Assembly (NCBI GenBank): GCA_963834385.1
Contig: CAWIBO010000002.1
Span: forward strand, 960,001-1,024,000
From: an uncultured Verrucomicrobiae bacterium
GTDB lineage: Bacteria; Verrucomicrobiota; Verrucomicrobiia; Chthoniobacterales; UBA10450
Reading direction: 5' to 3'
Length of the DNA: 64,000 bases
Shown: positions 1,528-19,200 of the stretch, piece by piece
Position numbering within the stretch: the stretch's first letter is position 1
How the letters are laid out: each line of letters begins with the position of its first letter
The notes under the pieces: model-generated
Database searches by the model: none
Seen by the model: only the letters and a program-made list of their open reading frames with translations
What the model was told of the DNA's origin: nothing
Translations under genes and position numbers: made by a program

Positions 1528-2973
1528 TTAGAAAAGCGCGGTGATGATCCGGGAGACAAGCCGGTCCGGGAGCAGCCCGAGGAAAAGAACAAACCCGGCC
1601 AGGATCGAAATGGTGACCCGCGGCAGGAAAGCCGGCGCTGCCCCCGGGGCTGGCAGGGGCGCGTCGCTGACCAGCACAAGTTTCATGACCACCAAATAAT
1701 AATAGAGGGAAACAAGGCTCCCCAGGAGGGCGAGGGCGACCAGCCAGAGCAGCCCATGGTCCGGTCCGGCGGCCAGGGCCGCGCTGAACAGATAAAACTT
1801 CCCGAAAAAGCCGGCCAGGGGCGGCAGCCCGGCGAGCGAGAGGAGGAAAAAACAGAAACACCCGGCAAGCAGCGGCGAACGCGCGCGCAGGCCAGCGAAA
1901 TTGTCGAGATCGTCGCCCCCGGTCTCGTGTCGGACGAGGGCGATCACGCCAAACGCACCCACAAGGGTGAAGGCATAGATCGTGGTGTAGAACAGGGTGG
2001 AGGCAAAGCCGTCGCGCCCCGCCACCAACCCGAGCAGGGCGTAACCGGCATGGGCCACCGCGGAATAGCCCAGAAGCCGGCGCACATTTTTTTGGGCCAG
2101 CGCCACGAGGTTGCCCACGATAATGGAGGCGGCCGCGAGCAGCGCCAGCAGCGGAGCCCAACCCGGGGCAAAACTTCCCCACTCCGCGTTTCCAATCGCC
2201 GGGCCGAAGGCGGTAAGCACAAGTTTTCCCAGGACGACAAACGCGGCCACCTTGGAGCCGGAGGCAATGAAGGCGGCGGCCGGCACCGGCGCGCCCTGGT
2301 AGGTATCAGCCACCCAGAGATGGAAAGGGGCGGCCGCGATCTTGAAGGCGAACCCGATCAGCGTCATGAGCAGGCCGACGGCAAGAAGCGGGGCCGGCGT
2401 TTCCGTAAATCGGCTGGCGATGGCGTCGAAGCCGGTGCTGCCGGTCATGCCGTAAACCAGGCTGAGGCCAAAGAGGGTGAAGGCGCTGGCGGTGCTGCCA
2501 AAAAGGAAATACTTCAACCCGGCCTCCGCGGAATGGCGGTCGCGCTTGTCGAACGCCGTCATGAGATAGAGGGCGAGGCCGGTCAGCTCGAGGCCGATGA
2601 AGACCATGAGCAATTCCTCGCTTCCGACGAGCAGAAGGAGACCGATTGTTCCCAGCAAAATGAGCGCGAGGAACTCCGCCTGGTTGCGCGGCACCTCCTC
2701 GTCGCGAGCCATGACCACGGTAAAAAGCGCCAGCGCGAGACAGATAACCTTGAACAAGGAAACCAGCGGACTGAGCACGAGCATGCCGCCAAAAAGAACC
2801 GCCTCTTCGGGGAGCCGCCCGACAGCGTAGGCGGCGGCCACAATTCCGAGGGCCGCGAGCGGCGGGGTAAAGGCCGCCCCCCGCGGCCCGGCCAGGCCGA
2901 GCGACAGGACAAGCACGGCAGCCAGGGCCAGGATGGCTTCCGGGGCCGCGAGCAGCAGCAGTTCTAGATACAT
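1528..2973 (-). CDS. nuoN: NADH-quinone oxidoreductase subunit N
   Basis: SAEAGLKYFLFGS, FKIAAAPFHLWVADTYQGAP, RRLLGYSAVAHAGY, SLAGLPPLAGFFGKF. Confidence 0.95.
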   Translation of the reverse strand: MYLELLLLAAPEAILALAAVLVLSLGLAGPRGAAFTPPLAALGIVAAAYAVGRLPEEAVLFGGMLVLSPLVSLFKVICLALALFTVVMARDEEVPRNQAEFLALILLGTIGLLLLVGSEELLMVFIGLELTGLALYLMTAFDKRDRHSAEAGLKYFLFGSTASAFTLFGLSLVYGMTGSTGFDAIASRFTETPAPLLAVGLLMTLIGFAFKIAAAPFHLWVADTYQGAPVPAAAFIASGSKVAAFVVLGKLVLTAFGPAIGNAEWGSFAPGWAPLLALLAAASIIVGNLVALAQKNVRRLLGYSAVAHAGYALLGLVAGRDGFASTLFYTTIYAFTLVGAFGVIALVRHETGGDDLDNFAGLRARSPLLAGCFCFFLLSLAGLPPLAGFFGKFYLFSAALAAGPDHGLLWLVALALLGSLVSLYYYLVVMKLVLVSDAPLPAPGAAPAFLPRVTISILAGFVLFLGLLPDRLVSRIITALF

Positions 2974-3001
2974 GAAAGGGAAATGGTGGCGATCACGGGG
3001 T

Positions 3002-4475
3002 TCATGCGCCGGGTCGGAACAGGTTCATCGCCTCGAGAGCGGGCATGACGCGGTCAAAAAGGAATTTTGGGTAAAGACCGGCGGCGAGCGTGCCGAGCAG
3101 GAGGATGATCGTCCCGATTTTTTCCGGGAAACTCACGGGAGAAAAGGCGGGAGCCGCGGTGTTCTCCTCAACGGTCTCGCGGCTGAAGAAGGAAAGTTTG
3201 AGCGCACGCAGGGTAAACGCCGCCACCAGCACCATGCCGGCGCCGGTCAGGCCGACGGCGACGGGATAATTCTGCCATGCGCCCAGCAGGATGGTGATCT
3301 CGGCGGCAAACCCGCTGAATCCCGGAATGCCCATGGAAGCGGCGGAAGCGGCGGCAAAGGCAAAGGCGAGAAAAGGCAACTGGCGCGCAAGCGGGAGCCG
3401 GGCCAGCTCCGCAAGGTCCCGGGTGTGCGTGCGCCGGTAAATGGCGCCGGCCAAAGCGAAAAGGAGCGCGCCGATGATTCCATGCGAGAACATCTGGAGG
3501 ACGGCGCCGCCTGCGCCGAGCGCGGTGGCCGAGCCGAGTCCAAGCAGGACAAAGCCCATGTGGCTGACGCTCGAATAGCCGATGACGAATTTAAGGTCAC
3601 GCTGGCGGAGAGCCACCGCCGCGGCATAGACAATGCCCAGGACGCCGAGGAAGACGATGGCGTCCCGCCAGGCGTGATAACCCGCCGGGAGCAGGTTCAT
3701 CGCCACCCGCAGCGCGCCGTAGGCCCCGAGCTTCATGACAATTCCGGCCAGGAGCATGGAGCCCGCGGTCGGCGCGGCCACGTGGCCGGTCGGCGCCCAG
3801 GTGTGCAGCGGCCAGATGCCGGCGAGGATGGCAAAGCCGAGGAACAGCACCGGGAAAACCCATGTCTGCACCTCGGTTGCGATCGGATAGCGAGCCAGTT
3901 GCGAAAGATCGAGCGCCGTGGACACGCTCTCTTTTCCCGCGGTGACGTAGATCGCCATGAGGCCGATCATGACGAGCGCGCCTCCGAGAAAGGAATAAAG
4001 CGTCAGTTTCATGGCGCCGTATTCGCGGTTGGTTGAGCCCCAGATCGCGATCAGGAAAAATTTGGGGATGATCACGACCTCGTAGAAGAGGAAGAAAAGG
4101 AAAAGATCGGCGCTCAGGAAAACGCCAAAGGACCCGCCCACCACAAGCAACAGCCAGAAGAAAAACTCGTTCTGGCGCCTGTCCGTTTCCCAGGAAAAGA
4201 GCACGGCGCAGGCGGCCGTGAGCCCGGTGACGAGACAGAGGGTCAGGCTGATGCCGTCCGCCGCGAGATGATATTCCATCCCGAGCGACGGCACCCATTC
4301 GAGGCGCGTGATCGTTTGGAAAAGACCGGGCTTGTCCCGGCCGAAGAACGCCAGGAGCGAGATGCACGGCGCCGGCGCCGGTGACGAGCAGGGCGATCCA
4401 GCGGGCCCAGAGGCGCGGCAAAAGCAGGGCGGCCAGCGCCCCGGCAAAGGAAAGATAGATCGTCCAGGCAATCAT
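3002..4475 (-). CDS. nuoM: NADH-quinone oxidoreductase subunit M (second copy); +1 frameshift near 4365, probably a read error
   Basis: N-terminus MIAWTIYLSF (ORF 3597..4475) joins the 3002..4471 frame with DGISL, PLHTWAPTGHVAAPTAGSMLLAG, IGYSSVSHMG, SMGIPGFSGFAAE. Confidence 0.9.
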
Positions 4476-4479
4476 GCGT

Positions 4480-5946
4480 TCAGGTCAGGATCCGCGCGAG
4501 GTGCACCACGGCGGCGTTGAAAATGTTCAGGAGAAACTGCGGCGCGAGACCGATGGCGAACATGAGCAGGGTCACCGGCGCCACCACCGCCATTTCCCCG
4601 CGGCGCATTTCGGGAAAGGTCTCCGCGCCTGCCGGGACCGGCCCGCTGAAGAGCGCCTGCATCGCGCGCAGAAACACCACCGCGGTAATGAGAAGGCCAA
4701 AGGCCGCGGTCGCGGCGAAGGGCGCAGCCAGGGCAAAGGTTCCCTTGAAGATCAAAAATTCACCGATAAACCCGTTCAACCCGGGCAGACCGAGCGAGGA
4801 AAACATGGCTACGCTCATCCAGCCCGAAAAAATCGGTGCGCGCTGCATCAGCCCGCCGAAATCAGCGAGACCGCGCCGGCCGCGGCGTTGCTCGAGCAGT
4901 CCCACATAATAGAAGAGCGCGGCGGCGGTGATGCCGTGGCTCGCCATCTGCACGAGCACGCCGCTCAAGGCGGCCTGGCTTTCCGCGGCCAACCCGGCCC
5001 CGGCCGCGCCCACGGCGAAAAGAGCCAGCAGACAGTACCCCAGATGGTTGATCGAAAGGTAGGCCACCATTCGCTTGAGGTCGGTCTGCGCCCACGCTGC
5101 CAGCGACGCGAAGAGGATCGAGCAGACCGCCAGCCCCATCAGCCAGGGCCCGAGCGCCTGGATCTGGCTGGGAAAAAGCGGCAACAGCAGACGGATGAAC
5201 CCGTAGACCCCCATCTTCGAAAGCGCGCCGGTCAACACCATCGCCACACCGGTGGGCGCGGCGGCGTAGGCGTCGGGCAGCCAGGTGTGAAACGGAAAAA
5301 TCGGCACCTTGACCGCGAGTCCCAGGAAAATGCCGGCGAAGATGAACCACGTTTCAGGACCTTCGAGCAGACCGCTCCGGCCAAGCGCCGGCAGCGCCGC
5401 AAACTCGAAGGTGCCGCCGACATAATACACCCCGAGAAAGCCGAGGAGCATGGCGATGCTCCCAAGAAAAGTGTAGAGAAAGAACCGGGTCGACGCGCGC
5501 TCGCTGGCTTCCCCACCCCAGAGGCGGATGAGCAGAAACGACGGGAGCAAACTCAGTTCGTAGAAAAGAAACCAGAGCACGAAATTCTGGGCGGTGAACG
5601 TCCCGTAGAGGCCGGCCTGGAGCAGGAGCATGAGGGAGAAAAAACCGCGGGAGCCCTGGTGGTGCGCGCAGAGCGCAAACGGCAGGATCACCGTGGTGAG
5701 CAGGACCAGCAGGAGGCTGAGGCCGTCGAGCCCGAGGAGGTACTCGGCGCCGAGCGACGGGATCCAGGGGCGGCGTTCGACCAGTTGCAAACCCACCACG
5801 TCCGGAACGAACCGGGCGCAAAGACCGGCGACGAGGGCCACGCAGCCCGCCTGGACAAGGAACGTCGCCAGCCGTGCCCGCGCGGCCGGGAGCAGCGCGA
5901 TCCCAATCGCGCCGAGCAGCGGAAGAAGAATAAGCGCGGTAATCAT
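4480..5946 (-). CDS. nuoM: NADH-quinone oxidoreductase subunit M (first copy)
   Basis: LGLDGLSL, FYE..LLP.FLLI..WG, AVKVPIFPFHTWLPDAY, DLKRMVAYLSINHLG, SLGLPGLNGFIGEF. Confidence 0.93.
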   Translation of the reverse strand: MITALILLPLLGAIGIALLPAARARLATFLVQAGCVALVAGLCARFVPDVVGLQLVERRPWIPSLGAEYLLGLDGLSLLLVLLTTVILPFALCAHHQGSRGFFSLMLLLQAGLYGTFTAQNFVLWFLFYELSLLPSFLLIRLWGGEASERASTRFFLYTFLGSIAMLLGFLGVYYVGGTFEFAALPALGRSGLLEGPETWFIFAGIFLGLAVKVPIFPFHTWLPDAYAAAPTGVAMVLTGALSKMGVYGFIRLLLPLFPSQIQALGPWLMGLAVCSILFASLAAWAQTDLKRMVAYLSINHLGYCLLALFAVGAAGAGLAAESQAALSGVLVQMASHGITAAALFYYVGLLEQRRGRRGLADFGGLMQRAPIFSGWMSVAMFSSLGLPGLNGFIGEFLIFKGTFALAAPFAATAAFGLLITAVVFLRAMQALFSGPVPAGAETFPEMRRGEMAVVAPVTLLMFAIGLAPQFLLNIFNAAVVHLARILT

Positions 5947-7919
5947 TGCCACCAGGCGTAGAGGAGAAGAAGCGCCAGCGCGCTGAAGACCAGACCGGCC
6001 AGATAACCCTGCACCCGGCCGGAGTGCAGCCGCGAAATGACCCGGCCCAGCCCGCGCGTGAGTTCGCTCCCATGGTCCACCCGCGCATTGATCGCGTGAT
6101 CGTCCACGCCTTTCCCGATCACACCGGCGAGCTGCCCGGCGCCGCCCACCAGCCGGACCAAACCGCCCCAGACAAAGCGGTCGAGCCAGTCCGCAGCGCG
6201 AGCGGCGCCCCGGGCGACCGCCACCACCGTGACGGCATAAAGTTCATCAATCCAGAAACGCCGCGACAAGGGGCGAAAAAGCCATGGTTGCGTGGCCTCC
6301 AGCCAGTCCTCACGTCCCGAGCCCCGGTAAAACCAGATCCCGAGAAACAGGCCGAGCGCCACCAGCACCATGGAGATGAACAACATTGGCTGAAAAAAAT
6401 TGGCGGGTTCAAAGTGGACCGGTTCGCCGAGAAGATAGTGGTGCAGCCAGGGCCAAGCCGGGGTGAGCAGCGCGCTCAGCGCCACCGTCGCCGCCGCCAG
6501 GAAAAGCAGCGGCAGGCGCATCACCCATGGGCTTTCCTCCGGGACGCTCTCCTCGCGGCGGGCGTCGCCGTAAAAGACGAAGATCATCTGGCGCGTCATG
6601 TAAAGCGCGGTCAGGACCACGCCGGCCATCATGAGATAATGGGGCCAACGCGAAACGGGCCAGAGCGCGGTGGCGTGCAGAATTTCCTCCTTGGTCCAGG
6701 CGCCGGCGAAAAGAAGGGGAAACCCGCTCAGGGCAAGCATGCCGATTGCGTAAACGGCAAAGGTCCACGGCATGAACCGCCGCAGGCCGCCCAGCCTCCG
6801 GATGTCCTGTTCATGATGGTTGCCGTGAATAACCGAGCCGGCGCCCAGAAAGAGCAGCGCCTTGAAGAAACCATGCGCGAGCAGGTGCATGATTCCGGCG
6901 GCGACCCCGCCCACCCCGAGCGAGACCATCATGAGCCCAAGCTGCGAGATGGTGGAATAGGCCAGGACCCGCTTGAGATCGAACTGCGCCAGGGCGAGGA
7001 GAGCGCCGAGCAGCCCGGTGATCACGCCCACCCAGACCACCACGGTGAGCGAGGTCGTGACGCCATTGCCGACGCTGCCCACGAGGAAAAGCGGGTAAAC
7101 GCGCGCGACCAGGAAAACGCCCGCGGCCACCATGGTGGCGGCATGAATCAAGGCGCTCACCGGCGTCGGCCCTTCCATCGCGTCCGGCAGCCAGGTGTGC
7201 AGCGGGAACTGGCCGGATTTCCCGGCGGCCCCGCAAAAGATGAGGAGGGCGATCCCGGTGGCGCTGCCGCCGAGGACCATGAGCGACGCCCCTTCGAGGC
7301 AGCCCGCGCCGTTGTCGTAAAAAAGCAGGGTGCCGCTCCGGTGATAGAGCCAGAGCAACCCGAGGAAGAACCCGACATCGCCAAGGCGCGTGATAATGAA
7401 CGCTTTTTTGGCGGCGGCGGCCGCGGCCGGCCGTTCGATCCAGAATCCGATCAGCAGCCAGGAGGCGAGCCCAACCAATTCCCAGCAGATGAAAAGAAGA
7501 AGGAGGCTGTTGGCCACGACCACGCCGAGCATGGCTGCGGTGAAAAAGGAGAGATAAGCGAAGAAGCGGGTGAAGTTCGGGTCGCCACCCATGTAACCGA
7601 TGCTGAAGAGAAAGATGCAGAGGCTCACCACCGTGATCATGAGCAGGAGGGCGGCGGTCAGCGGATCAAGCATCCAGCCGAGCGGCAACGTCTGGTCGCC
7701 AAAGGTGAACCAGGTGAAGTTATGCACCGCACGCGAGGCGGGCACGACAAGGGTCTCGCGGAACGCGACCAGCGAAAGAACGAGCGCTCCGGCCTGGCCC
7801 GCGAGAGCGAACCCCACCGTGGTCCGGCGCCAGGGGCGCGGCAACAGCAGGATCAGGAGCGCCGCCGCCAATGGCAGGACCGGGATCAGCCAGAGCGAGG
7901 AAACGATGGAGGGATTCAT
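5943..7919 (-). CDS. nuoL: NADH-quinone oxidoreductase subunit L with extended C-terminal lateral helix
   Basis: GKSGQFPLHTWLPDAMEGPTPVSALIHAATMVAAG, KRVLAYSTISQLG, HGFFKALLFLGAGSVIH. Confidence 0.96.
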   Translation of the reverse strand: MNPSIVSSLWLIPVLPLAAALLILLLPRPWRRTTVGFALAGQAGALVLSLVAFRETLVVPASRAVHNFTWFTFGDQTLPLGWMLDPLTAALLLMITVVSLCIFLFSIGYMGGDPNFTRFFAYLSFFTAAMLGVVVANSLLLLFICWELVGLASWLLIGFWIERPAAAAAAKKAFIITRLGDVGFFLGLLWLYHRSGTLLFYDNGAGCLEGASLMVLGGSATGIALLIFCGAAGKSGQFPLHTWLPDAMEGPTPVSALIHAATMVAAGVFLVARVYPLFLVGSVGNGVTTSLTVVVWVGVITGLLGALLALAQFDLKRVLAYSTISQLGLMMVSLGVGGVAAGIMHLLAHGFFKALLFLGAGSVIHGNHHEQDIRRLGGLRRFMPWTFAVYAIGMLALSGFPLLFAGAWTKEEILHATALWPVSRWPHYLMMAGVVLTALYMTRQMIFVFYGDARREESVPEESPWVMRLPLLFLAAATVALSALLTPAWPWLHHYLLGEPVHFEPANFFQPMLFISMVLVALGLFLGIWFYRGSGREDWLEATQPWLFRPLSRRFWIDELYAVTVVAVARGAARAADWLDRFVWGGLVRLVGGAGQLAGVIGKGVDDHAINARVDHGSELTRGLGRVISRLHSGRVQGYLAGLVFSALALLLLYAWWQ

Positions 7920-7950: not shown

Positions 7951-8265
7951 TCATCCTTTCAGGTGATCAAGCCGATCCACGCTGGTGGTGCGGTAATGCC
8001 GGTAAACGGCCAGGACGAGAGCGAGACCGACGGCCGCCTCGGCCGCGGCGATGGCGATGGAAAAAATCGCGACCAGCACGCCGATGGGCGGCTGCGGAGA
8101 AGGGGCGAACCGCCAGAAGGCAATGAAGTTGAGGTTGGCCGCGGCCAGCATCAGCTCAATCCCGATCAGGATGAAGATGGCGTGGCGCCGGCTGAGAGCG
8201 GCGAGCAACCCAACGCAAAAAAGCGCGGCGGAAACGAGTAGGATGAGCTGGAGGGTGGCGGTCAT
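7951..8265 (-). CDS. nuoK: NADH-quinone oxidoreductase subunit K
   Basis: [12 protein letters not shown] and [14 protein letters not shown] motifs; ATG at 8265 (MTATLQ). Confidence 0.93.
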
Positions 8266-8267
8266 GT

Positions 8268-8411
8268 TCCCGGGTATCGGGGGCGTCTCGCCCACTGGCA
8301 ATGGCGTCCCTGCCCTGGCGAACTTGAGCAGGCTCGGATGCATCGCGGCGCAGGAAGATCGTTTCGGCAGGATGCCGAAACCGGCGGGCGAGACGCCCAC
8401 CCTACCCGGGA
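8268..8411. repeat. GTAG-type REP inverted pair (REPIN-like) between nuoJ and nuoK
   Basis: Left arm TCCCGGGTATCGGGGGCGTCTCGCCC...CCTGCC (8268-8314) is an imperfect inverted copy of the right arm (8366-8411), whose reverse complement is TCCCGGGTAGGGTGGGCGTCTCGCCC...CCTGCC. Confidence 0.75.
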
Positions 8412-8416
8412 TGTGG

Positions 8417-8899
8417 TCACGATTTTTCCTCCATGACGAGGACAAGCGCGCCGAGCAGGGCCGCGGTGAGGAGAAGGCCGACGCATTGCAGTGGCCAGAT
8501 GTACGCAGTCATGAGCGTTTCACCGATTTGTCTCACGGTGAGCGCTTCCATGGCCGGCGGGGCTGCGGTCAGGCCCGGCGTTCGGAGGATGGCCCAGGCC
8601 AGGCCGCCAAAAACAGCCAGCGCCAGGAGAAGACCGATCCATGGCAGCCCGCGCCGCCCGCTTTCCTCGCGCCGGGTCAGCAGGATGGTGAAGACGATCA
8701 GGATGGCGACGGCGCCGACGTAGACGAAGACCTGGACGAGCCCGACGAACTCAGCCCCGAGGAAGAAATAGAAGGCGGCCAGGCCGACAAAGGCGAGTGC
8801 CAGCGAGAGGGCGGCGTGAATCAGGCGCGGCAGGGTCGCGGCCGCGAGCGCGGCGGCGAGCGTGAAAACGGCGATGAAGGTGAAAACGATGAGGTTCAC
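8417..8899 (-). CDS. nuoJ: NADH-quinone oxidoreductase subunit J
   Basis: [35 protein letters not shown] start overlaps the nuoH stop. Confidence 0.92.
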
Positions 8900-10086
8900 T
8901 CGGCAAAACGGTAGATGCGCCGCGCAAACCGCCGGCGCGGCGCCGCCACGGCGGAGAGCAGGAGGTACAAGGCGGCAATGACAACGAACGACCAGAGCCA
9001 GCCGCGCAGACCGCGCCCGGCATAATGCCAGGTGGCCGCTGCGAGGAGACAGGCAAAAGCCATCGGGAGCATGAATTTCCAGGCAAAGTTCATCACCTGG
9101 TCGACCCGGGTGCGGGGGAGCGTGCCGCGCACCCAGATGAAGACGAAGAGCAGGAGGGCCAGCTTGGCAAAAAACCAGCACCACGAGGGGACCACGGCAA
9201 GGAACTCCATGGGCGCCTGCCAGCCTCCGAGGAACAGGGTCACGGCCAGCCCGCTCACGGCGAACATCCCGAAATATTCCGCCATGAAGAAAGTGGCATA
9301 CTTGAACCCCGAATATTCGGTCATGTGCCCGGCCACGATCTCCGATTCGCCTTCCGGGACATCAAACGGTGTCCGGTTCGACTCGACCAACCCGGAGACA
9401 AAGAAAAGAAGAAAAGCGGCGGCGCCCCAGGGCGTGAAAACAAACCAGCGGGGCACGATTCCGCCGGTGTAACCGCCCTGCGCGGCCACGATGGCATCGG
9501 GGGCCAGGGCACCCACCACCATGACCACCGGAAGCACGGCGAGGATGAGCGGAAGCTCGTAGCTCACCATCTGGGCAATGGCCCGCATGGCGCCGAGCAT
9601 GGAGAACTTGTTGTTGCTCCCCCAGCCCGCCATGAACACGGCCAGCTCGGTGGTGGAACCGACGGCAAAAAAGAAAAGGAGCCCGCCATCGATCGCAAAG
9701 GGGGTCATGTTCCGCCCGTAGGGAATGACGCCAAGGGCAAGAATGGCCGGCGCCGCCACCATGATCGGCGCGAGGAAATGCACCACCCGGTCGGCGCGCG
9801 CCGGCACGATGTCCTCCTTGATCAACATTTTGATGCCGTCGGCCACCGGCTGGAAGAGACCGAACGGCCCGACCCGATTGGGGCCGTAACGGTTCTGAAT
9901 CCGGCCCAGGATTTTGCGCTCAAGGAGCGACATCAGGGCGAAAAGGGCGAGGAAAACGTGGAGCAGGAAGAGAATGGTGAGAAGACTCGAGATCAGCGCC
10001 AGGAGCCAGCCGGGCGCACCGGCCATGAGGGAGAGCACCCATTGTTTCGCCGACACAAACATCTGGTCGAGAGAGGCGGCGCTCAT
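8896..10086 (-). CDS. nuoH: NADH-quinone oxidoreductase subunit H
   Basis: ERKILGRIQNRYGPNRVGPFGLFQPVADGIK, AQMVSYE, ESNRTPFDVPEGESEIVAGHMTEYSG. Confidence 0.96.
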   Translation of the reverse strand: MSAASLDQMFVSAKQWVLSLMAGAPGWLLALISSLLTILFLLHVFLALFALMSLLERKILGRIQNRYGPNRVGPFGLFQPVADGIKMLIKEDIVPARADRVVHFLAPIMVAAPAILALGVIPYGRNMTPFAIDGGLLFFFAVGSTTELAVFMAGWGSNNKFSMLGAMRAIAQMVSYELPLILAVLPVVMVVGALAPDAIVAAQGGYTGGIVPRWFVFTPWGAAAFLLFFVSGLVESNRTPFDVPEGESEIVAGHMTEYSGFKYATFFMAEYFGMFAVSGLAVTLFLGGWQAPMEFLAVVPSWCWFFAKLALLLFVFIWVRGTLPRTRVDQVMNFAWKFMLPMAFACLLAAATWHYAGRGLRGWLWSFVVIAALYLLLSAVAAPRRRFARRIYRFAE

Positions 10087-10296
10087 CCGCGTTTGAGGAA
10101 AGCGGGATGACCCTGGTTAAGCAAGGCAGAAGCATGCCGCGCCGACCGAGACCAAGCCGGGCAGTAAGGGGGAACGGGAGCCACAGATGGACGCAGATCC
10201 AGAGGGAAGAGATTCAGCCGGCGAAAATAAGTCGCCAGTGTTCCGGGTGTCCGATTAAATAAAAACGAAACGGTGGCTCGTTCCCCTTTTTTATCC

Positions 10297-10671
10297 ATGA
10301 CGCCCGATCCTTATTTCTTTCTCGTCATTTTCATCGGGGTTGCGCTGGTTTTCCCGGTTCTGCCGCTCGGTCTGGCCTGGCTTTGGCGCCGGTTTCTCCA
10401 GCCGCCCAAGCCGGGCGTGCGCAAGAATGCCACCTACGAGTGCGGCGTGGAATCAACCGGAGAAGCGCAGGTGCAGTTCCGTTCGCAATATTATCTTTAC
10501 GCCATCATCTTCCTGATCTTCGACGTGGAAGCCATTTTCCTGGTGCCGTTCGCGGTCGCTTTCACGGGCCTGCCCCTCGGCGCTTTCCTGGCCATTCTGA
10601 TTTTCCTGCTCCTGTTGCTCGAGGGCCTCGTCTGGGCCTGGGGCAAAGGCCTCTTGAATTGGTCGCGGTGA
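10297..10671 (+). CDS. nuoA: NADH-quinone oxidoreductase subunit A
   Basis: K.ATYECG, QYYLYAIIFLIFDVEAIFL, W.KGLLNW. Confidence 0.95.
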   Translation: MTPDPYFFLVIFIGVALVFPVLPLGLAWLWRRFLQPPKPGVRKNATYECGVESTGEAQVQFRSQYYLYAIIFLIFDVEAIFLVPFAVAFTGLPLGAFLAILIFLLLLLEGLVWAWGKGLLNWSR

Positions 10672-10685
10672 TCGAAAGGAGAACC

Positions 10686-10923
10686 AATTTGGAAACCAGG
10701 AAGCCAGGAATTGGGAATCAGGAAAAGAGGAACGCAGGAAAAAGAGAATAAGGTTCGTTTTCCATCCCTGATTTGAAATCGCCCGCTAGTGAAGAAGAGA
10801 GCTAATTTGGAAACCAGGAAGCCAGGAAAGGTTCAGAAAGATACGCCTTTCCTGTTTTCCTCTTTTCCTAATTCCTGGATTCCTGGTTTCCAAATTGATT
10901 TCCTGCTTTCCTGCCTTCCTGAT
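10686..10923. repeat. CAGGAA-periodic palindromic intergenic element between nuoA and nuoB
   Basis: 25-bp exact direct repeat AATTTGGAAACCAGGAAGCCAGGAA at 10686-10710 and 10804-10828; 10848-10896 is a near-perfect inverted copy of 10686-10741 with a 7-nt indel. Confidence 0.85.
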
Positions 10924-10937
10924 TCGTCTTCCCCGTC

Positions 10938-11564
10938 ATGAGTGACCCGATCGATCCTGGTCTTAGGAGCGAGCTGCAGAAGCAGGGCATCTGGGTGACG
11001 TCGACCCAGGAGCTGTATAACTGGGGGCGCAAAAACTCGATCTGGCCGCTCCAGTTCGGCCTGGCTTGTTGCGCCATCGAGATGATCGCCACCGCCGCGG
11101 CCAAGTACGACCTGGCCCGCTTCGGCGGCGAAGTCTTCCGGCCGTCGCCGCGGCAGGCCGACCTCATGATCGTCGCCGGGACGGTGACGAAGAAGATGGC
11201 GCCGCAGATTGTGCGTCTTTACAACCAGATGCCCGACCCGAAATACGTCATCTCGATGGGAGCCTGCGCGATTTCCGGCGGCCCCTTCAAGCAGGGCTAT
11301 AACGTCCTGAAGGGAATTGATCGTTACATCCCGGTGGACGTCTACATCCCCGGGTGCCCGCCCCGCCCAGAGGCGCTGCTCCACGCCTTCATGGAGCTGC
11401 AGAAGAAGATTGATGAACAAAAGCTGACCGGAGCGGGCCGGGCGGTTCATCTCGATCCGGCGCACCCGAGTGAGTTCCCGGTGCCGGAATTTGGCGCGCA
11501 CGATCTCGAGCCGCCGGCCAATCCGGACCTGTTTCGGCCGCCGGTGGTGGGTCGACAAGGTTAA
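10938..11564 (+). CDS. nuoB: NADH-quinone oxidoreductase subunit B
   Basis: [33 protein letters not shown] (N2 cluster ligands). Confidence 0.97.
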
Positions 11565-11572
11565 CGAGCCCC

Positions 11573-12223
11573 ATGGAATCACTGGAACAGATCAAGGCGC
11601 GGTTGGAGGCGGCGGTGCCGGGGGCGCAGGCTGAGATCGTGCCCAATCCCGGTCCGGCGGCGCAGCCTTCGTTGCTGCTCGCGCACGAACAGGCGGTGGC
11701 GGCGGCCCGGTTTCTCCGGGACGACGCGGCGCTGCGTCTTGATCATTGCTCCAATGTGACCGGGGTCGATTGGCTGGATCGCGTGAACAAGACGAAGGTG
11801 AAGGTGTTGAAGCTGGTCGAGGGCGAGGAGAAGGAGGTGGAAGAAACCCGGGAGGAACAGGTGCCGGGCTACCTCGAAGCGGTTTACCATCTTTATTCCA
11901 TGGCGCTGAAACAGGGGCCGGTGGTGCTGCGGCTCCGCACGGCCGATCGCGCGGCCGGCACGACCCTTCCCTCGCTGACGCCGGTCTGGCGCAGCGCCGA
12001 GTTCCAGGAACGGGAGATCTTCGACCTTTATGGCATTCGGTTTGAGGGGCACCCCGACCTGCGTCGCATCCTGATGTGGGATGAGTTCGCGGATTATCCG
12101 ATGCGGAAGGATTACGTGGAGCCGGACGATTACGAGTATGAGCCGACGCCGCACGACGAAGTGCTGGCGCGGTCAACGGCGCGTCCGGGAAGCGATGGGG
12201 CGGAGAAGCTGGGCGCCGGATGA
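11573..12223 (+). CDS. nuoC: NADH-quinone oxidoreductase subunit C
   Basis: TGVDW, VYHLYS, PSLTPVW..AEFQEREIFDLYGI.FEGHPDLRRIL, PMRKDY. Confidence 0.94.
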   Translation: MESLEQIKARLEAAVPGAQAEIVPNPGPAAQPSLLLAHEQAVAAARFLRDDAALRLDHCSNVTGVDWLDRVNKTKVKVLKLVEGEEKEVEETREEQVPGYLEAVYHLYSMALKQGPVVLRLRTADRAAGTTLPSLTPVWRSAEFQEREIFDLYGIRFEGHPDLRRILMWDEFADYPMRKDYVEPDDYEYEPTPHDEVLARSTARPGSDGAEKLGAG

Positions 12224-12226
12224 TTT

Positions 12227-12470
12227 GTCCACAGATTACACAGATGAACACAGATTGTGGGGAGGGGACGTTCTCCTCGCGTAGTTTCCCCGCCCGTCAT
12301 CCTGAGCGAAGCGAAGGACCTCACGAACGTCCTTTCGCTCACGCCCGCTCTGGCGCCGCGCTTTCTCTGCACACGCGAGGTCCCTCGTCGTCTGCGCGAC
12401 TCGGGATGACGGAAGCGCGCCGCCATCCGCCTCTTCTTTCAATCTGTGTAAATCTGCGAAATCTGTGGAC
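12227..12470. repeat. Nested palindromic element: ACACAGATT 9-mer-periodic outer IR enclosing a CGTC-type REP pair
   Basis: Outer arms 12227-12257 and 12440-12470 match 27/31 as an inverted repeat; inner arms CCGTCATCCTGAGCGAAGCGAAGGACCTC (12294-12322) and GAGGTCCCTCG...CTCGGGATGACGG (12377-12412). Confidence 0.85.
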
Positions 12471-12487
12471 CACAACTCTCTCCTGAA

Positions 12488-13645
12488 ATGACCACCGGAT
12501 TCCACGAACTGGCCGAAGCGCCGCCGCGAATGACGTCGCGGCTCGAGGGCGAACTGCTTGAGATCTCGATGGGACCGCAGCATCCCTCCACCCACGGCGT
12601 TTTCCGGATGAACGTCGCGCTCGAGGGCGAGATCGTGAGGAAGCTCAAGCCGGTCTTCGGGTATCTCCATCGCAACCACGAGAAGATCGGCGAAAACACC
12701 AGTTACCTCGGATCGATGCCTTACACCGACCGACTCGATTACTTCTGTTCCATGACCAACAACTGGGCCTACGCGCTCAGCGTGGAGAAACTGGCCGGGA
12801 TCGAAGTGCCGGAGCGGGCGGAATATCTGCGCGTCATCCTGGCTGAGCTGACCCGCCTGCAAAACCATGCCTCGCTGCTCGGCTTTCTCCTAAGCGACAT
12901 GGGGGCGTGGGGCACTCCGCTCATGTACGCCTTCCGCGAGCGCGAAAAAATCCTCGATCTCTTCGAGTCGCTCTCCGGTTCGCGCATGATGTGCGATTAC
13001 ATGCGCTTCGGCGGCTGCCGGGTCGACCCCAGCCCGGCCTGGATCGCCCACGCGCGCCGCCTGACCGAGGCGTTCCCGCGGTTCCTCGACGAGTTCGAAA
13101 AGCTGATCGTGGAGAACGAGATCCTGCTCGCGCGCACACAGGAGGTTGGAAAACTTTCACCCGAGCTGGCGATCAACGCCGGCATCACCGGCCCGATGCT
13201 GCGGGCCAGCGGAGTGAACTACGACCTGCGGAAGGTGGATGGTTACGGGATTTATCCACGGTTCAAGTTCCGGGTGCCGCTGGGCGACCATGGGGATTGT
13301 TACGATCGGCTGATGATGCGGGTGCTGGAGATGCGGGAGAGCCTCGCCATTCTCGAGCAGGCCTTCGCGCAACTGCCGGAGGGACCGGTGCAGAATCCGA
13401 AGGTGAAGATCCGCGCTTTCAAACCGCCGGCGGGCGAGGCCTATGGCCGCATCGAGGGGCCGAAAGGCGAGCTCGGCTTTTACCTGATCAGCGACGGTGG
13501 CGCGAACCCTTATCGTTACCGGGTGCGCCCGCCGAGCTTCATCAACCTGACGGTGCTGGAGGATCTCTGCCTCGGGCACACCGTGGCAGACGTCATGGTG
13601 ATCCTCGGCTCGATCGACATCGTCATGGGCGAGGTGGACCGGTAG
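12488..13645 (+). CDS. nuoD: NADH-quinone oxidoreductase subunit D
   Basis: [41 protein letters not shown]-terminal GEVDR; no NiFe CxxC motifs. Confidence 0.97.
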
Positions 13646-16112
13646 GACGGTCCGCTTTGTTTCCGCGGAGCGAGTCGGCCACGGCCGGGTCGATGCTTTG
13701 CAGATGAAGGTCGCGTTGCGGGAAGGGGATGGCGATGTCGGCCTCTGCGAGCGCCTCGGTGATGGCGACGGCCACATCGCTTTTGATCTGGAGGCCCTGG
13801 TCGTAATCGTCGGTCCAGAGCCGGACCTCGAACTCGAGGGCATCGGCTCCAAACCCGGACATGATGGTCTGCGGGGCCGGCTGCTGCGCCGCGAGGGGGT
13901 GCGAACCGGCCACGCGGGTGAGCAACTCGATGACGCGTCGCGGTTCCGTGCCGTAGGCCACGCCCACGGGAATCTCGATGCGGCGCTGCCGGTTTGAGAG
14001 CGTCCAGTTTGTCACCTTCTCCGAGATGAGCTGCCCGTTCGGCACGATCAGCTCCGAGCTGTCGAAGAGCCGGATAACGCTGGCGCGGATGCCGATCCGG
14101 CGGATGACGCCGACGAAAGCGTCCACCTTCACGACATCGCCCACCTTGACCGGCTGTTCAAAGAGCAGGATGAGGCCGGAGACGAAATTGTTGACGATGT
14201 TTTGGAGGCCGAACCCGATGCCGACGCCGAGCGCGCCGGCGAGGACGGTAAACTTCGTCATGTCGAGGCCCATGGCAGCGATGGCGAGAAGGAACCCGAC
14301 GAGGAGAACGCCGTAGTGCAGGAGGGTGGAGACTGCGTAGGAGGAGCCGGTGTTGACGTTAAAGTGGCTGTAAACGTCCTCCTCGAGAAGAAACCGGAGG
14401 AACCGTGAAACCTGGAAGGCCAGCCAGATGGTGAGGACGAAGGCGAGAATGGCACCGAGGGAGAGATGGAGGGAACGAAAGCTGACTTCCGCCGTAACGA
14501 GGGCGTGAAACTGGTGAAAAAGCGGGCCGCGCAGGGCAAACGCGTCGAGGGTTAGAACGCCCCAGAGAATAACGGCGACGAAGAGGATGAACCGGGCCAG
14601 GCGCCGTTGCAGGAGTGGGCGATGTTTGCGAACCACCCCGAAGGCGGCGAAGGGCCGCACCTGGAGAGCGAAGAAGACGAGCCCGGAGAGGACGCCGGCC
14701 GCGGCATAAAGAAAAATCGCGAGGTAGGCGGCGGCCAGGGCGCCGCCGGCAAGATAATTCGAGAGCCGGAAATAGCCGAGGAGGTTGCTGATGAAGACCG
14801 CCGCGAAAAGAAAAAGGCCGAGGCGCGCCCCGGCCCGGGTCGCCTTGCGCGCGGTCGTGCCCGCCTCGGCCGTCCGGCGGGTGGAACGGATGTACCAAAG
14901 AAGAAACAGGGCGCCGCCGATCATCTCCAGGAGCAGGATCAGGCGGGAAAGCCCGGGCAGGGAGGCGACCAGTTTCCGGCCCTGGCCGACCAGGTAAAAA
15001 ATGATCAGCGCATTCAGGATCGGGAAAAGGTGCCGGGCAATCAGGCGGCGGAGAATGACCACCACCGGGAAGAGCGCGAGCAGGGAAAGAATCACCCAGA
15101 AGAGGCGGGGCGGTTCGACGAAAAGCGCCTGGCAGGCGAGCAGCGAAAGAACCGCCGCCATGGCCAGGGGCAGCTGCAAAACGCGGTTGGCCCGGCGCAG
15201 GGCCGGGTCGTCGTCGGTCCATTTTGCCGCCTGCCGTTTCACCCAGAAAAGGCTCAGCGCCAGCGCGCCAAAAATGAGGGCCAGGGTGATGAAGGTGGGC
15301 CATTCCCGCTCCGCGAAGGCGCGCAACTGCACGGCCTGGGCGATAAAGGAATCACGGGTCCGCCCGGCCAGGTCGCGACGGGTCTCCTCACGAAACGCGG
15401 CGTTCCAGATCGGCGGACTGTCGCGCTCAAAGAGTTCGCCCACGGCGGCGGACTGCGCGGCGCGCACCGAACCGAGCGCGGTCTGCGCCCGTTCCGCCTG
15501 CGCGGCCACGCGGCTTTGTTCAGTGAGCAGGGCGGAACGTTCCCCCGTCAGGGCCGTCGCGGCCCCCGCGATTTCCGCCTGCACCTTTTCAATCCGGGCC
15601 TGGATCTCCGGCGGAGCGCCTTCGGCCCGCGCCTGTTCGAGGGTCTTCGCCCAGGTCGCCTGCAAACGCGGCAGAAGCGCCAGCTCCTTCTCCATCAGCT
15701 CGGCCCGGCTGGCCAGATCGTTTGACCAGGCTGAGAGCTGCGTGCCCAGCCGTTCCCAGCGGAGATCAAGGTCGCGCAGGGTCTCGAGCAGCACCCCACG
15801 CTGCAAAAGCTGGCTGGTCTCGGCAAGGCGCGCACTGATTTCCCGGTTAACCTCGGCGAGGTCGCGGCCGGGCACGGTCTCGAACGTTCCCGGTGCGGCC
15901 TCCATTTCCTGCAGGGTGGTCTCAACCAACTCCGCCTGGCCGACCACTTCAGCCATCGGGATTGGCGTCGGCTCAGGCGTGGCCGCAGGCACTGACGTCG
16001 GCGCCGGGGAGGCCGCGGGCGGAGCGGGCGCCGGCGCGGTTTTGACCGCTCCCTGGCCAGCGGCTGTGAGCGCAGACTGAAAGAGGACGATGAAAAAAAG
16101 CAGGCTCTTCAT
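13623..16112 (-). CDS. MscS/MscK-family mechanosensitive channel with periplasmic coiled-coil domain
   Basis: Signal peptide, helical periplasmic region, TM block, [43 protein letters not shown]. Confidence 0.92.
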
Positions 16113-16177: not shown

Positions 16178-17515
16178 GTGCCTACCCGCAGCCGGCTGCG
16201 GGACAAGGTTCCACCAACAAATAAATCTCTCCAACGGGTGCCCGCCTCTTTTCCAGTCCGCAACGCCGAAGAAGGCCCCCGCCCCGCGGCGAACTTGAAG
16301 CTGCGGTTGATTGGACCCGGCCTGATCATGGCGGTGTGCGGGATCGGCGCCAGCGACGTCATCTCCGCCACGATCGGCGGCGCGACCTACGGCGCCCGCT
16401 TGCTCTGGGCGCTTGTTCTTGGCGCGTTCTTCAAGTTCGTCCTGACGGAGGGTCTGGCTCGGTGGCAGCTGGCCACCGGGAGCACGATCGTCGAAGGCTG
16501 GGCCCGCCACTTGCCGCGGTGGGTCTTGAAACTCTTTTTCGTTTACCTGGTGCTTTGGTCGATCGCCGTGGGCGGAGCGCTCTTGAGCGGATGCGGCTTG
16601 GCCATTGAAAACATCACCGGCGGCCGCGTGTCCTTTGCCTGGGGCGCGGCGGCGCAGGGTGCGATCGTGTTCTTATTTATTTACACGGCCCGGACGGCAC
16701 GCTTCGCCGCCATCATGAAACCGCTCATCGCCGTCATGTTTGTCAGCGTGGTGGCGTGCGGCATTCTTGTTTTTCCCGAGCCATCCCGCGTCTGGCGCGG
16801 TCTTTTCCTGCCGGCCGTCCCGTCCGGGGGCGGTCCTTACGTGCTTTCGCTCATTGGGGGGATCGGCGGGTCGCTTACCCTGATCAGCTATGGCTACCTC
16901 CTCCGAGAGGAAACACCTGATCATCCCGCCAACCTCGGACGCGTGCGCCTTGACCTCGCCGTCGCCTACCTTTTCACTGCCATTTTCGGCAGCGCCATCA
17001 TGTTGATTGCCACGCGCGTGTTTCACACCGCCGGAATCACGATCAGCGACAGCGATGCCGTCTCCCGAATGGCGGACGAACTGGCCAAGGTGGCCGGCGC
17101 GGCGGGGTTCTACATTTACTCCATCGGCTTCTGGGCCGCCGTGCTCGCTTCCCTCATGGGAGTCTGGCAAACCGTCCCGAAGATTTTTGCTGATTGCTGG
17201 CCGCTCCTGAGAGCACCGAAACCGCCGACCGACGAGGCTGAAAAAGGCCGGATGTCCCGGGTGGCCCTTGTCTTCATGGCTGCCGTGGCCATGCCCTTTG
17301 CCTTTCTGCACCGGCCGCTCCTGCTCGTGGTCGCCTTTACCATTATCGGAAGTTTCTTTATCCCGTTCCTCGCCGCCACCCTGCTGCACCTGAACAACAG
17401 AGTCTGCTGGAGTTCATCGCTCGGGCGTAATCGGCTGCCAACGAACCTTGTGCTCGGCCTTGTCCTCCTTCTTTTCCTCGCCTTGGGGGGCCTTGAGATG
17501 CGACGGCTCTTCTGA
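16178..17515 (+). CDS. NRAMP-like divalent metal transporter (start uncertain, possibly 16295)
   Basis: IGPGL.MA..GIGASD, GA.YG..LLWA, EGLARWQLATG.T..EG, GGIGGS; about 11 TM helices. Confidence 0.8.
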   Translation: MPTRSRLRDKVPPTNKSLQRVPASFPVRNAEEGPRPAANLKLRLIGPGLIMAVCGIGASDVISATIGGATYGARLLWALVLGAFFKFVLTEGLARWQLATGSTIVEGWARHLPRWVLKLFFVYLVLWSIAVGGALLSGCGLAIENITGGRVSFAWGAAAQGAIVFLFIYTARTARFAAIMKPLIAVMFVSVVACGILVFPEPSRVWRGLFLPAVPSGGGPYVLSLIGGIGGSLTLISYGYLLREETPDHPANLGRVRLDLAVAYLFTAIFGSAIMLIATRVFHTAGITISDSDAVSRMADELAKVAGAAGFYIYSIGFWAAVLASLMGVWQTVPKIFADCWPLLRAPKPPTDEAEKGRMSRVALVFMAAVAMPFAFLHRPLLLVVAFTIIGSFFIPFLAATLLHLNNRVCWSSSLGRNRLPTNLVLGLVLLLFLALGGLEMRRLF

Positions 17516-17592: not shown

Positions 17593-18153
17593 ATGATCGG
17601 GACGGGCATTCTCAACGGCATGGCGGTGACGATGCGGAATTTCGTCGGCAGCTATTTCGAGCCGGATCGGCTGACGACGGTGCAATACCCGGAGGAGCGC
17701 GCGCCGTTGCCCGAGAATTACCGGAATTTTCCCTTCCTGGTCTTTGACGGGGAGGAGAGTGAAGCGGGGCTGCGCTGCGTGGCCTGCAAGATCTGCGAGA
17801 AGGAATGTCCGCCGCAGTGCATTTACATCGTCAAGAGCGACGACAAGAAGCCCGACTACATGGGTAAACCGCAGTTTTACCCGAAGGTGTTCGATATCGA
17901 CATCTCGGTCTGCATGAGCTGCCAGATCTGCGTGGAGGTTTGTCCTTTTGAAGCCATCAAGATGGACAAGGTTTTCGAGCTGAGCACGCGGGAGCGTTTC
18001 GATGCGCTGCTCCTCCGCAAAGGCGAGCTGGCAAAGTCGAACGGGTACTATCACGAGATTCATCCGGTGGAAGCGGCCGCCGTGGATGCCAATCTGGCGG
18101 CAGCCGCGGCCAAAAAGAAAACGACGCAAGAGGCTGCGCCGAAGGAGGCTTGA
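17593..18153 (+). CDS. nuoI: NADH-quinone oxidoreductase subunit I (2x[4Fe-4S])
   Basis: TVQYPEER, CVACKICEKECP and CMSCQICVEVCP ferredoxin motifs. Confidence 0.93.
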   Translation: MIGTGILNGMAVTMRNFVGSYFEPDRLTTVQYPEERAPLPENYRNFPFLVFDGEESEAGLRCVACKICEKECPPQCIYIVKSDDKKPDYMGKPQFYPKVFDIDISVCMSCQICVEVCPFEAIKMDKVFELSTRERFDALLLRKGELAKSNGYYHEIHPVEAAAVDANLAAAAAKKKTTQEAAPKEA

Positions 18154-18376: not shown

Positions 18377-18817
18377 TCAGCGGCAGCAGGAGATGACGCT
18401 CGCGGAGTCCGCCGGTTCAGGCTGGTCGAGCATGTCGTCGGTCACGGCATAGACTTCCCAGGCCACGCCGTCGGGATCGTGCACCCAGATCTTGTCCTGC
18501 CGGGCATGGCAGCAGGTGGTGTTCATTTCCTCCTCCGGGGCGAGGCCGGCTTGCTTTAGGCGGTCGCTGATCGCGGTGACGGCGGCGGTATCGGCCACGA
18601 GGAGGCCGAGATGATCGAGCGGGCCGGCCTCTGTCTGCGCCGGTTTTTCCATGAGGGCCAGTTTCACCGGGGGCTGGGCGGCATCGAAGTTGGCGTAACC
18701 GGCGCGGCGCTTGTGCGGGGGCAGGCCGAGGAAGGCCTGGTAGAACGCGACCGAACGTTCAAGATCGGAGACGCGGAGGGAGAGATGGAGTTTGGCGGGT
18801 TGTTCCTGGTTGTTCAT
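18377..18817 (-). CDS. ArsI/CadI-family VOC (glyoxalase-fold) protein, probable C-As lyase
   Basis: HLSLRVSDL..SV.FY, GYANF, LDHLG, TTCCHARQDKIWVHDPDG..WEVY, C-terminal CC. Confidence 0.88.
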   Translation of the reverse strand: MNNQEQPAKLHLSLRVSDLERSVAFYQAFLGLPPHKRRAGYANFDAAQPPVKLALMEKPAQTEAGPLDHLGLLVADTAAVTAISDRLKQAGLAPEEEMNTTCCHARQDKIWVHDPDGVAWEVYAVTDDMLDQPEPADSASVISCCR

Positions 18818-18854
18818 GGCTGATGTCCTTTCTGGTTTCGGTTTTTGTGGTGGT

Positions 18855-18874
18855 GCATCGATGGATATCGATGC
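18855..18874. promoter_or_regulatory. Candidate ArsR operator upstream of arsI
   Basis: Perfect 8-4-8 palindrome GCATCGAT-GGAT-ATCGATGC. Confidence 0.55.
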
Positions 18875-18888
18875 GTTGGGGTTGAAAA

Positions 18889-19200
18889 TCAGGGCCGTTT
18901 GCGGCCCCGGAGCCGCTGGGTCTCTTTCTCCTCCGGGGCAAAGGCCTGCAAAAGGTTGCCGCAGCAGTTCACCACCGCCGCCTGGTTCATGGTGTAAAAA
19001 GCGAGCTTCCCTTCCTGGCGATGATGCACCAGCCCGGCCCGCTTGAGGACCGCGAGATGATGCGATGCCGTCGGCTGGGTCACGCCCACTTCGCGCGCAA
19101 TTTCCGTGACCGGCCGCCAATGGCAGCAACAGTAACGCATGATCCGTTGGCGGGTAGCGTCGGCGATCGCCTTGCCAAACTGAACAGGAGTCGCAGGCAC
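18889..19200 (-). CDS. ArsR/SmtB-family transcriptional regulator
   Basis: KAIADATRQRIM, VTEIA..VGVTQPTASHHLAVLK.AGLV..RQEG...FY HTH; CCC and CC motifs. Confidence 0.92.
   Translation of the reverse strand: MPATPVQFGKAIADATRQRIMRYCCCHWRPVTEIAREVGVTQPTASHHLAVLKRAGLVHHRQEGKLAFYTMNQAAVVNCCGNLLQAFAPEEKETQRLRGRKRP

Follow-up and report, generated by a model that had tools for sequence, protein, structure and literature searches.

A predicted two-NuoM complex I without NADH module across a Chthoniobacterales family, and a putatively relocated lysine in its second NuoM

Introduction

Does an antiporter subunit added to respiratory complex I add a pumped proton? This question is raised by a gene cluster of an uncultured Verrucomicrobiae bacterium (Chthoniobacterales; UBA10450). 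The window analysed here, i.e., the whole 64,000-nucleotide stretch at positions 960,001 to 1,024,000 of contig CAWIBO010000002.1 (assembly GCA_963834385.1), carries nuoL, two copies of nuoM (M1 and M2), and nuoN in a row. Complexes with two NuoM subunits (2M complexes) are the simplest natural test of the question, which bears on one-proton-per-subunit versus NuoL-only models of complex I. Such complexes, which Chadwick et al. are said to have described in 2018, reportedly carry about 26 extra residues in the lateral helix of NuoL, spanning a fourth antiporter, and reportedly have been proposed to move an extra H+ per 2e-.

According to the passages of PMC7300363, PMC8004040, and PMC7117926 that cite the 2018 work, its clade 2 comprises complexes of Chloroflexota and marine heterotrophic Thaumarchaeota, and passages of the first two papers describe these as lacking nuoEFG. 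The 2M complexes of Nitrospira (clade 3) and Complex_I_3 of 'Ca. Manganitrophaceae' likewise combine an extra antiporter with a 26-residue insertion in the lateral helix (HL), as described in parts of PMC9040806, where the same insertion is also reported for complexes without extra pumps. Portions of PMC11636273, PMC8129789, PMC13220270, PMC8165549, and PMC7419157 complete the literature basis. Searches combining Verrucomicrobia with Chadwick, nuoM, and complex I returned no paper, which does not imply absence from print, and a search for Udaeobacter with complex I had none among the papers listed.

Results and Discussion

The cluster encodes a probable complex I with two NuoM subunits

We are strongly confident that the cluster is a 2M complex I, a new example of a design already known since 2018 and present across the whole family. 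Its product would be a complex I of 12 subunits, two of them NuoM, that lacks the NADH module and in which a four-antiporter arm (N-M2-M1-L) would assemble under a lengthened NuoL helix, electrons would pass from ferredoxin or flavodoxin to menaquinone, and five protons would be pumped per two electrons, leaving NADH to a canonical 14-subunit complex I encoded elsewhere in the genome. In its fullest form, this reading would make the complex a working five-proton ferredoxin:menaquinone pump across the Chthoniobacterales family, with M2 rewired from a lysine on transmembrane helix (TM) 7 to one on TM5 in an exchange with a TM8 histidine that would have evolved four times or more; taken as a whole, that statement is tentative and rather doubtful, and its parts deserve different degrees of belief.

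Between 10086 and 1528, the genes nuoH-J-K-L-M1-M2-N follow one another on the minus strand, bearing out the order nuoL-nuoM-nuoM-nuoN of a preliminary description of the sequence (7919 down to 1528). The plus strand, in head-to-head orientation to nuoH, encodes nuoA-B-C-D (10273-13645) and nuoI (17593-18153) (Table 1). Searches with hidden Markov model (HMM) profiles found all of the core subunits A, B, C, D, H, I, J, and K of the two-M complex. None of nuoE, F, and G occurs in the cluster, a point that the preliminary description had overlooked. Contig 3 of the same genome (2.9 Mb, 5 contigs, 89.6% complete) encodes a second complex I, a canonical 14-subunit one with fused EF, G, and one nuoM, and the only NuoF domain of the genome lies inside this canonical operon. 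The organism had been taken for a probable verrucomicrobium, and most of the nearest named homologues of M1 indeed carry the label Chthoniobacterales or Verrucomicrobiota.

The 2M loci of Chloroflexota (Chloroflexus aggregans nuoABCD..HJKLMMN and the Anaerolinea type) share the L-M-M-N order, the absence of nuoEFG, the long helix, and the second, canonical complex I; unlike them, the family of the window has the A-B-C-D-I block inverted head-to-head. The window cluster has nuoH and no nuoG, whereas Nitrospira clade 3 is described in parts of PMC6606698 as lacking nuoH, nuoE, and nuoF and having an enlarged nuoG. Canonical complex I, for its part, has three antiporters and an intact pair of TM5 glutamate and TM7 lysine, and its helix is shorter by 25-29 residues.

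Both M copies are NuoM by their profile scores. Against TIGR01972 (NuoM model, cut-off 263.8), M1 scores 441 bits and M2 417 bits, far above their best MrpD scores (155 and 153) and the HyfB score of M2 (140), which rules out the MrpD or HyfB identity that had been considered for either copy. The two are 33-34% identical to each other. The fold predicted for M2, on the 452-codon part that follows a frameshift discussed below, has a predicted local distance difference test (pLDDT) value of 87.8 and a predicted template-modelling score (pTM) of 0.92, and the top 27 Foldseek hits among the matches listed are NuoM, ND4, or NdhD chains, the best with a template-modelling score of ~0.9. Fold and central-axis residues are the same as in canonical NuoM and NuoL (E. 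coli, Thermus, and Paracoccus, and NdhD of cyanobacterial NDH-1).

A longer lateral helix accompanies the second NuoM

The 69 residues between IDELY and LHSG in NuoL had been noted as an insertion, and alignment with the genome's own canonical NuoL confirms a gap-sized insertion at that place. Between D558 and G634, the HL spans 77 residues in the window and 52 in the canonical NuoL of the same genome (+25), or +26 relative to the 51-residue class of NuoL, matching the size given in the relevant passages of PMC9040806. AlphaFold2 models residues 554-631 as one helix, with pLDDT values of 74-82 for residues 551-600 and 52-62 for residues 601-640. Both 26-residue modules of the HL are amphipathic with a best period of ~96-97 degrees; therefore, 26 residues make 7 turns and the helix face is kept. 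Some 26 residues correspond to ~39 A of helix, roughly the width of one antiporter.

Of the 156 NuoL frames, 9 were dropped for want of anchors, leaving 147 with recognisable equivalents of both D558 and G634. The HL span was 77 in 30/30 verrucomicrobial two-M loci and 77-81 in 11/11 Chloroflexota two-M loci, so that the long helix is found at each of the 41 anchored two-M loci; the span was 48-53 in 102 of the 106 single-M loci and 78-82 in the other four. Two of the long single-M cases are Chloroflexota one-nuoM operons with an 82-residue span (L169:3933-6089 in G359 and L170:3877-6039 in G381), in genomes that also carry a 2M operon. In Poribacteria, two NuoL in one-nuoM operons (L006:9998-12199 and L063:9998-12211) have an overt 27-residue helix duplication (10 and 12 of 17 residues identical at period 27); both genomes have a second one-M operon, and in the one fetched (G041) its NuoL helix is of normal length. 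The open duplication in one-M operons means that helix length alone does not count pumps, and the extension is not diagnostic of two M.

These single-M loci with a long helix, in Poribacteria and the two Chloroflexota, are what one would expect if M1 and M2 were alternative subunits, incorporated one at a time, and the longer helix were unrelated to pump number. We regard this explanation as very improbable in view of the long helix at every two-M locus and of the M1-M2 gene order, which is fixed over two phyla with the genes abutting in one operon. Both M copies quite probably reside in one complex.

The insertion had also been described as a 26-residue tandem duplication, a claim that stands in part. 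The two 26-mers do lie at the positions given for them (modules 1 and 2 in Table 1), yet they share only 3/26 residues and 24/78 bases, which is chance level; self-similarity of the window at lag 26 has P=0.20, so the sequence by itself gives no significant repeat. For a self-profile of the family, P was 0.018 with the lag fixed and 0.61 when all lags were considered; direct repeat tests are thus negative. In favour of a duplication, when a single-module profile built on 12 canonical NuoL is run over the window, the family, and Chloroflexota, the two top-scoring positions are offsets 21 and 47 in each case, a spacing of exactly 26 (P <1/5000, <1/5000, and 0.0002, respectively, by a column shuffle that does not preserve helical periodicity). 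A circular-shift control scored similarly (up to 0.47 vs 0.50 for the window; 0.24 vs 0.13 for Chloroflexota), a non-discriminating outcome, since rotated units would also match in a genuine tandem repeat. The extra 26 residues are likely an ancient duplication, likely and not proven because the shuffle ignores helical periodicity.

The frameshift in nuoM2

As assembled, nuoM2 is frameshifted: from the ATG at 4475, the frame shifts after ~36 codons and the gene is split, and at 4364-4367 the window is one base longer than five relatives, outside any homopolymer. Both facts count against an intact complex and would fit a genuine recent pseudogene in this strain, leaving the complex inactive or with M1 alone. 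However, a close-strain contig across the site lacks the extra base (one contig, depth 5.4; 224 nt, 12 differences); the 452 codons downstream are open with all axis residues present; and the tree gives M2 a branch length near that of M1 (0.35 vs 0.32). Frame splits also occur elsewhere in this assembly: comparison with relatives' proteins shows splits in 7/81 merged rows, which fall on 5 distinct sites; the genes hit are orthologues of PBP1A, crtI, pepN, fdhD, and a glycosyltransferase. In 15/19 family loci, M2 is a single open reading frame, and the breaks of the other four lie at other sites. The extra base is very probably an assembly error and the pseudogene quite improbable; the earlier description of two divergent, full-length NuoM holds for divergence and NuoM identity, and for full length if the base is an error. 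Three soil metagenome runs belonging to a single study contain short contigs that match pieces of the window at 95-100%; runs X1 and X2 have no contig over the frameshift site among the matches listed.

Electron donor and direction

The donor is likely ferredoxin or flavodoxin because the cluster has no EFG. The gap in midpoint potential is ~0.25 V from NADH to menaquinone and ~0.35-0.43 V from ferredoxin to menaquinone; ferredoxin would therefore pay for 5 H+ at modest proton motive force, and NADH would not. A single, two-subunit 2-oxoacid:ferredoxin oxidoreductase is encoded ~28 kb past nuoN, and in six relatives, selected for analysis of the region past nuoN because they have such a gene nearby, the distance to nuoN is ~2-12 kb. 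Two futalosine-pathway menaquinone genes were found in the genome, where menB had no match over the cut-off; at 89.6% completeness, RnfD was not found. We lean slightly towards ferredoxin reduced by this oxidoreductase as the donor, with electron flow in the forward direction, and give a forward four-antiporter ferredoxin:menaquinone pump, with a predicted five protons per two electrons, an even chance. Beyond nuoN, by 2-5 kb, three loci (L184:433-5101, L185:1637-6450, and L186:5475-10219 of G001, G021, and G022) carry a pyruvate:ferredoxin oxidoreductase together with a dihydroorotate-dehydrogenase-like gene.

The same four-pump complex could instead run in reverse, with proton motive force reducing ferredoxin from menaquinol for carboxylation or biosynthesis, as proposed for Nitrospira. 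Passages of PMC6606698 and PMC9040806 propose this role for 2M complexes, and an anabolic role for the ferredoxin-linked enzyme is conceivable, given that the genome also encodes an NAD-linked 2-oxoglutarate dehydrogenase. Two points speak against reverse operation: RuBisCO and NiFe hydrogenase were not found in the 89.6% complete genome (markers of the reductive tricarboxylic acid cycle were outside the search), and the relatives of the complex are Chloroflexota rather than Nitrospira clade 3, which parts of PMC6606698 describe as lacking nuoH. We consider this alternative improbable.

The second NuoM may have rebuilt its ion pair

Aligned with the E. coli subunits, NuoL keeps every residue tested (E147, R178, D181, K234, H259, H345, H349, K353, and K410, with E411 for E. 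coli D400), and NuoN keeps E129, K211, K241, H308, and K392. The preliminary description had called for a check of the antiporter glutamate and lysine residues in both M copies, and the outcome differs between them. M1 keeps the equivalents of E. coli E144, K234, K265, H322, H348, and E407, with Tyr at H248; the TM5 Glu/TM7 Lys pair, the central Lys, and the distal Glu are all present. M2 keeps E144, K265, H322, H348, and E407 and lacks the TM7 lysine K234, which had been overlooked.

This loss is general, and so is a lysine elsewhere. Position 234 is Leu in 37/37 position-2 NuoM. All 26 verrucomicrobial M2 combine Lys150, six residues past the TM5 Glu, with Leu259, whereas the 11 Chloroflexota M2 combine Met150 with His259. 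NuoM without K234 is not confined to 2M complexes: the sole NuoM of canonical verrucomicrobial complex I lacks it in 9/9 examined (L001:3924-5396, L103-L122, and L179), with H143, H259, and K264 present. Since this is the only NuoM in those complexes, the lineage can therefore couple without K234.

Among 150 NuoM representatives, 138 in register were used and 12 out of register dropped. At five positions picked from our own earlier alignment (143, 150, 259, 263, and 264), a Lys or His occurs in 32/34 representatives without K234 and in 0/104 with it, and K150 (12) and H259 (17) never occur together among the 138. When those columns are left out of the tree, a minimum of 4 changes is required for K150, which is accompanied by Leu259 every time. 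By this count, the exchange of K234 for K150 took place no fewer than four times within this NuoM lineage. For the loss of K234 the most likely explanation is a relocated charge, and it is somewhat probable that M2 still couples, with K150 replacing K234.

Several findings weigh against a working five-proton pump, beyond the helix and frame data given above. According to parts of PMC3046159, E. coli NuoM mutants in K234 lose function, and PMC9271201, in the passages concerned, places the E144/K234 pair at the centre of the wave model. The K150/H259 exchange comprises only 4 independent pairs (sign test p 0.125-0.5), with which significance is unreachable, and in the same tree K234 and H259 occur together in two NuoM of Bacillota. 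On the donor side, the oxidoreductase is loosely linked to the cluster, this linkage is inherited by common descent, and G012, G017, and G020 do not have it; the normal 2-oxoglutarate dehydrogenase gene sucA is also in the genome. Our literature searches found no experimental study of any 2M complex, neither a structure nor a pumping measurement, and nothing relevant on NuoM without K234 in 2M complexes (supplements were outside their scope).

Much of this would suit a complex in which four antiporters assemble and M2, lacking K234, only relays charge along the central axis, for a yield of at most 4 protons. The uniform Leu at 234, the loss of function in the E. coli mutants, and the invariance of the axis residues E144, K265, H322, H348, and E407 in position-2 NuoM all agree with such a relay, as does TM7b of the M2 model, which is non-helical and of low confidence, although this may reflect the 37-row alignment. 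However, substitute Lys or His residues track the loss of K234, and the same lineage serves as sole NuoM in canonical verrucomicrobial complex I; we judge the relay unlikely. A coupling M2 thus stays our preference, and its rewiring leaves the claim of an extra proton uncertain yet testable. If the rewired M2 pumps, it would be a natural test of the Glu/Lys ion pair versus the central axis alone as the driver of pumping, and its rebuilt pair can be copied into E. coli NuoM.

Distribution and origin

What this example contributes is an M2 with a rebuilt ion pair, a family-wide occurrence, and relatives in a second verrucomicrobial family (f19). In counts that leave out the unpublished genomes G002, G007, and G014, an M2 orthologue (63-79% identical) is present in 20/21 published genomes of the family and in 1/16 genomes from other families of the order. 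A phylum sample (n=300) has it in 16 genomes: 2/2 of this family, 13/26 of f19, and 1/3 of a further family, f39, where the carrier has a single-M operon. The six f19 loci fetched read A-B-C-D-I-H-J-K-L-M-M-N without EFG; 5 of the 11 two-M loci found among 61 Chloroflexota genomes have this same order, again without EFG. The head-to-head inversion occurs in all 16 family loci with nuoA in range.

Trees of the M copies were rooted with a NuoN outgroup, without MrpD rows, Nitrospira, or clade 1 and 3 references; the mixture-model tree is a quick version. Verrucomicrobial M1 nests among Chloroflexota position-1 NuoM (Shimodaira-Hasegawa-like approximate likelihood-ratio support 99; 98-99 under the mixture model). 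The verrucomicrobial and Chloroflexota sets are also joined in the tree of NuoL with the helix removed (support 94), so that M1 and NuoL both fall with the Chloroflexota two-M loci. The NuoM tree proposed in the preliminary description thus places M1 with 2M relatives. Grouping of M2 with Chloroflexota is weaker (89 with two singles, 68 alone). These trees show common ancestry with the Chloroflexota 2M complexes. M2 and NuoL have the same single-M relatives and M1 is placed elsewhere; therefore M1, beside nuoL, is probably the added copy, with moderate support, in agreement with the relevant part of PMC7117926 and differing from that of PMC8004040. A recent local duplication as the source of M1 and M2 was tried and rejected (approximately unbiased test with M1 and M2 held together, p=0.0001).

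Some loci of relatives depart from the compact arrangement. In G340, M1 and M2-N lie 35 kb apart on opposite strands, both intact (G340:C14:519038-520498 and 555341-556777, L156). In 10/19 family loci, a gap of 560-670 bp separates nuoM1 from nuoM2; the three tested (L083:14395-14961, L084:4568-5116, and L100:4877-5428) all hold an ORF6N-domain gene (~185 aa), with similar gaps in L085, L088, L089, L094, L095, L097, and L101, and no such gene lies between the copies in the window. One assembly (G011) contains three near-identical 2M clusters (L091, L092, and L093), two of them on 18-kb contigs, probably strain haplotypes.

Features and neighbouring genes

Table 1 Coordinates in the window of the two-M cluster and of sites discussed in the text
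Feature	Position	Strand	Basis or remark
nuoN	1528..2973	-	481 aa; HMM
nuoM2	3002..4475	-	~490 aa if intact; HMM, residues, predicted fold
Leu codon at E. coli K234 site, nuoM2	3824..3826	-	Leu in all position-2 NuoM
New TM5 lysine codon, nuoM2	4061..4063	-	E. coli position 150
Extra base shifting nuoM2 frame	4364..4367	-	one base vs five relatives; probably assembly error
nuoM1	4480..5946	-	488 aa; HMM, residues, trees; likely added copy
nuoL	5943..7919	-	658 aa; HMM
NuoL lateral helix HL	6027..6260	-	residues 554-631; predicted continuous 78-residue helix, then TM16
HL module 2	6033..6110	-	residues 604-629, 26 after module 1; second-best profile match; amphipathic
HL module 1	6111..6188	-	residues 578-603; best match of canonical single-module profile
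nuoK	7951..8265	-	HMM
nuoJ	8417..8899	-	HMM
nuoH	8896..10086	-	HMM
nuoA	10273..10671	+	HMM; head-to-head with nuoH
nuoB	10938..11564	+	passes equivalog PRK14819
nuoC	11573..12223	+	HMM
nuoD	12488..13645	+	HMM
nuoI of two-M complex	17593..18153	+	HMM; two unrelated genes separate it from nuoD

A promoter scan of the gap between the divergent nuoH and nuoA gave nothing. In relatives' loci, nuoI lies a short way past nuoD, unlike in the window, where an MscK-like mechanosensitive channel gene (13623-16112, minus strand) and an Nramp-like transporter gene (16178-17515, plus strand) intervene; neither was found between nuoD and nuoI in the relatives. Directly 3' of nuoN on the same strand (65-1469, minus), the window has two genes, one of DUF1326 and one of PF09948 (copper chaperone-type), a pair not found beside relatives' two-M clusters. 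Past nuoI, an ArsR-family regulator and a glyoxalase-family gene lie at 18377-19200 (minus strand). The nuoC/nuoD (12220-12486) and nuoJ/nuoK (8266-8416) spacers have a repeat-like look.

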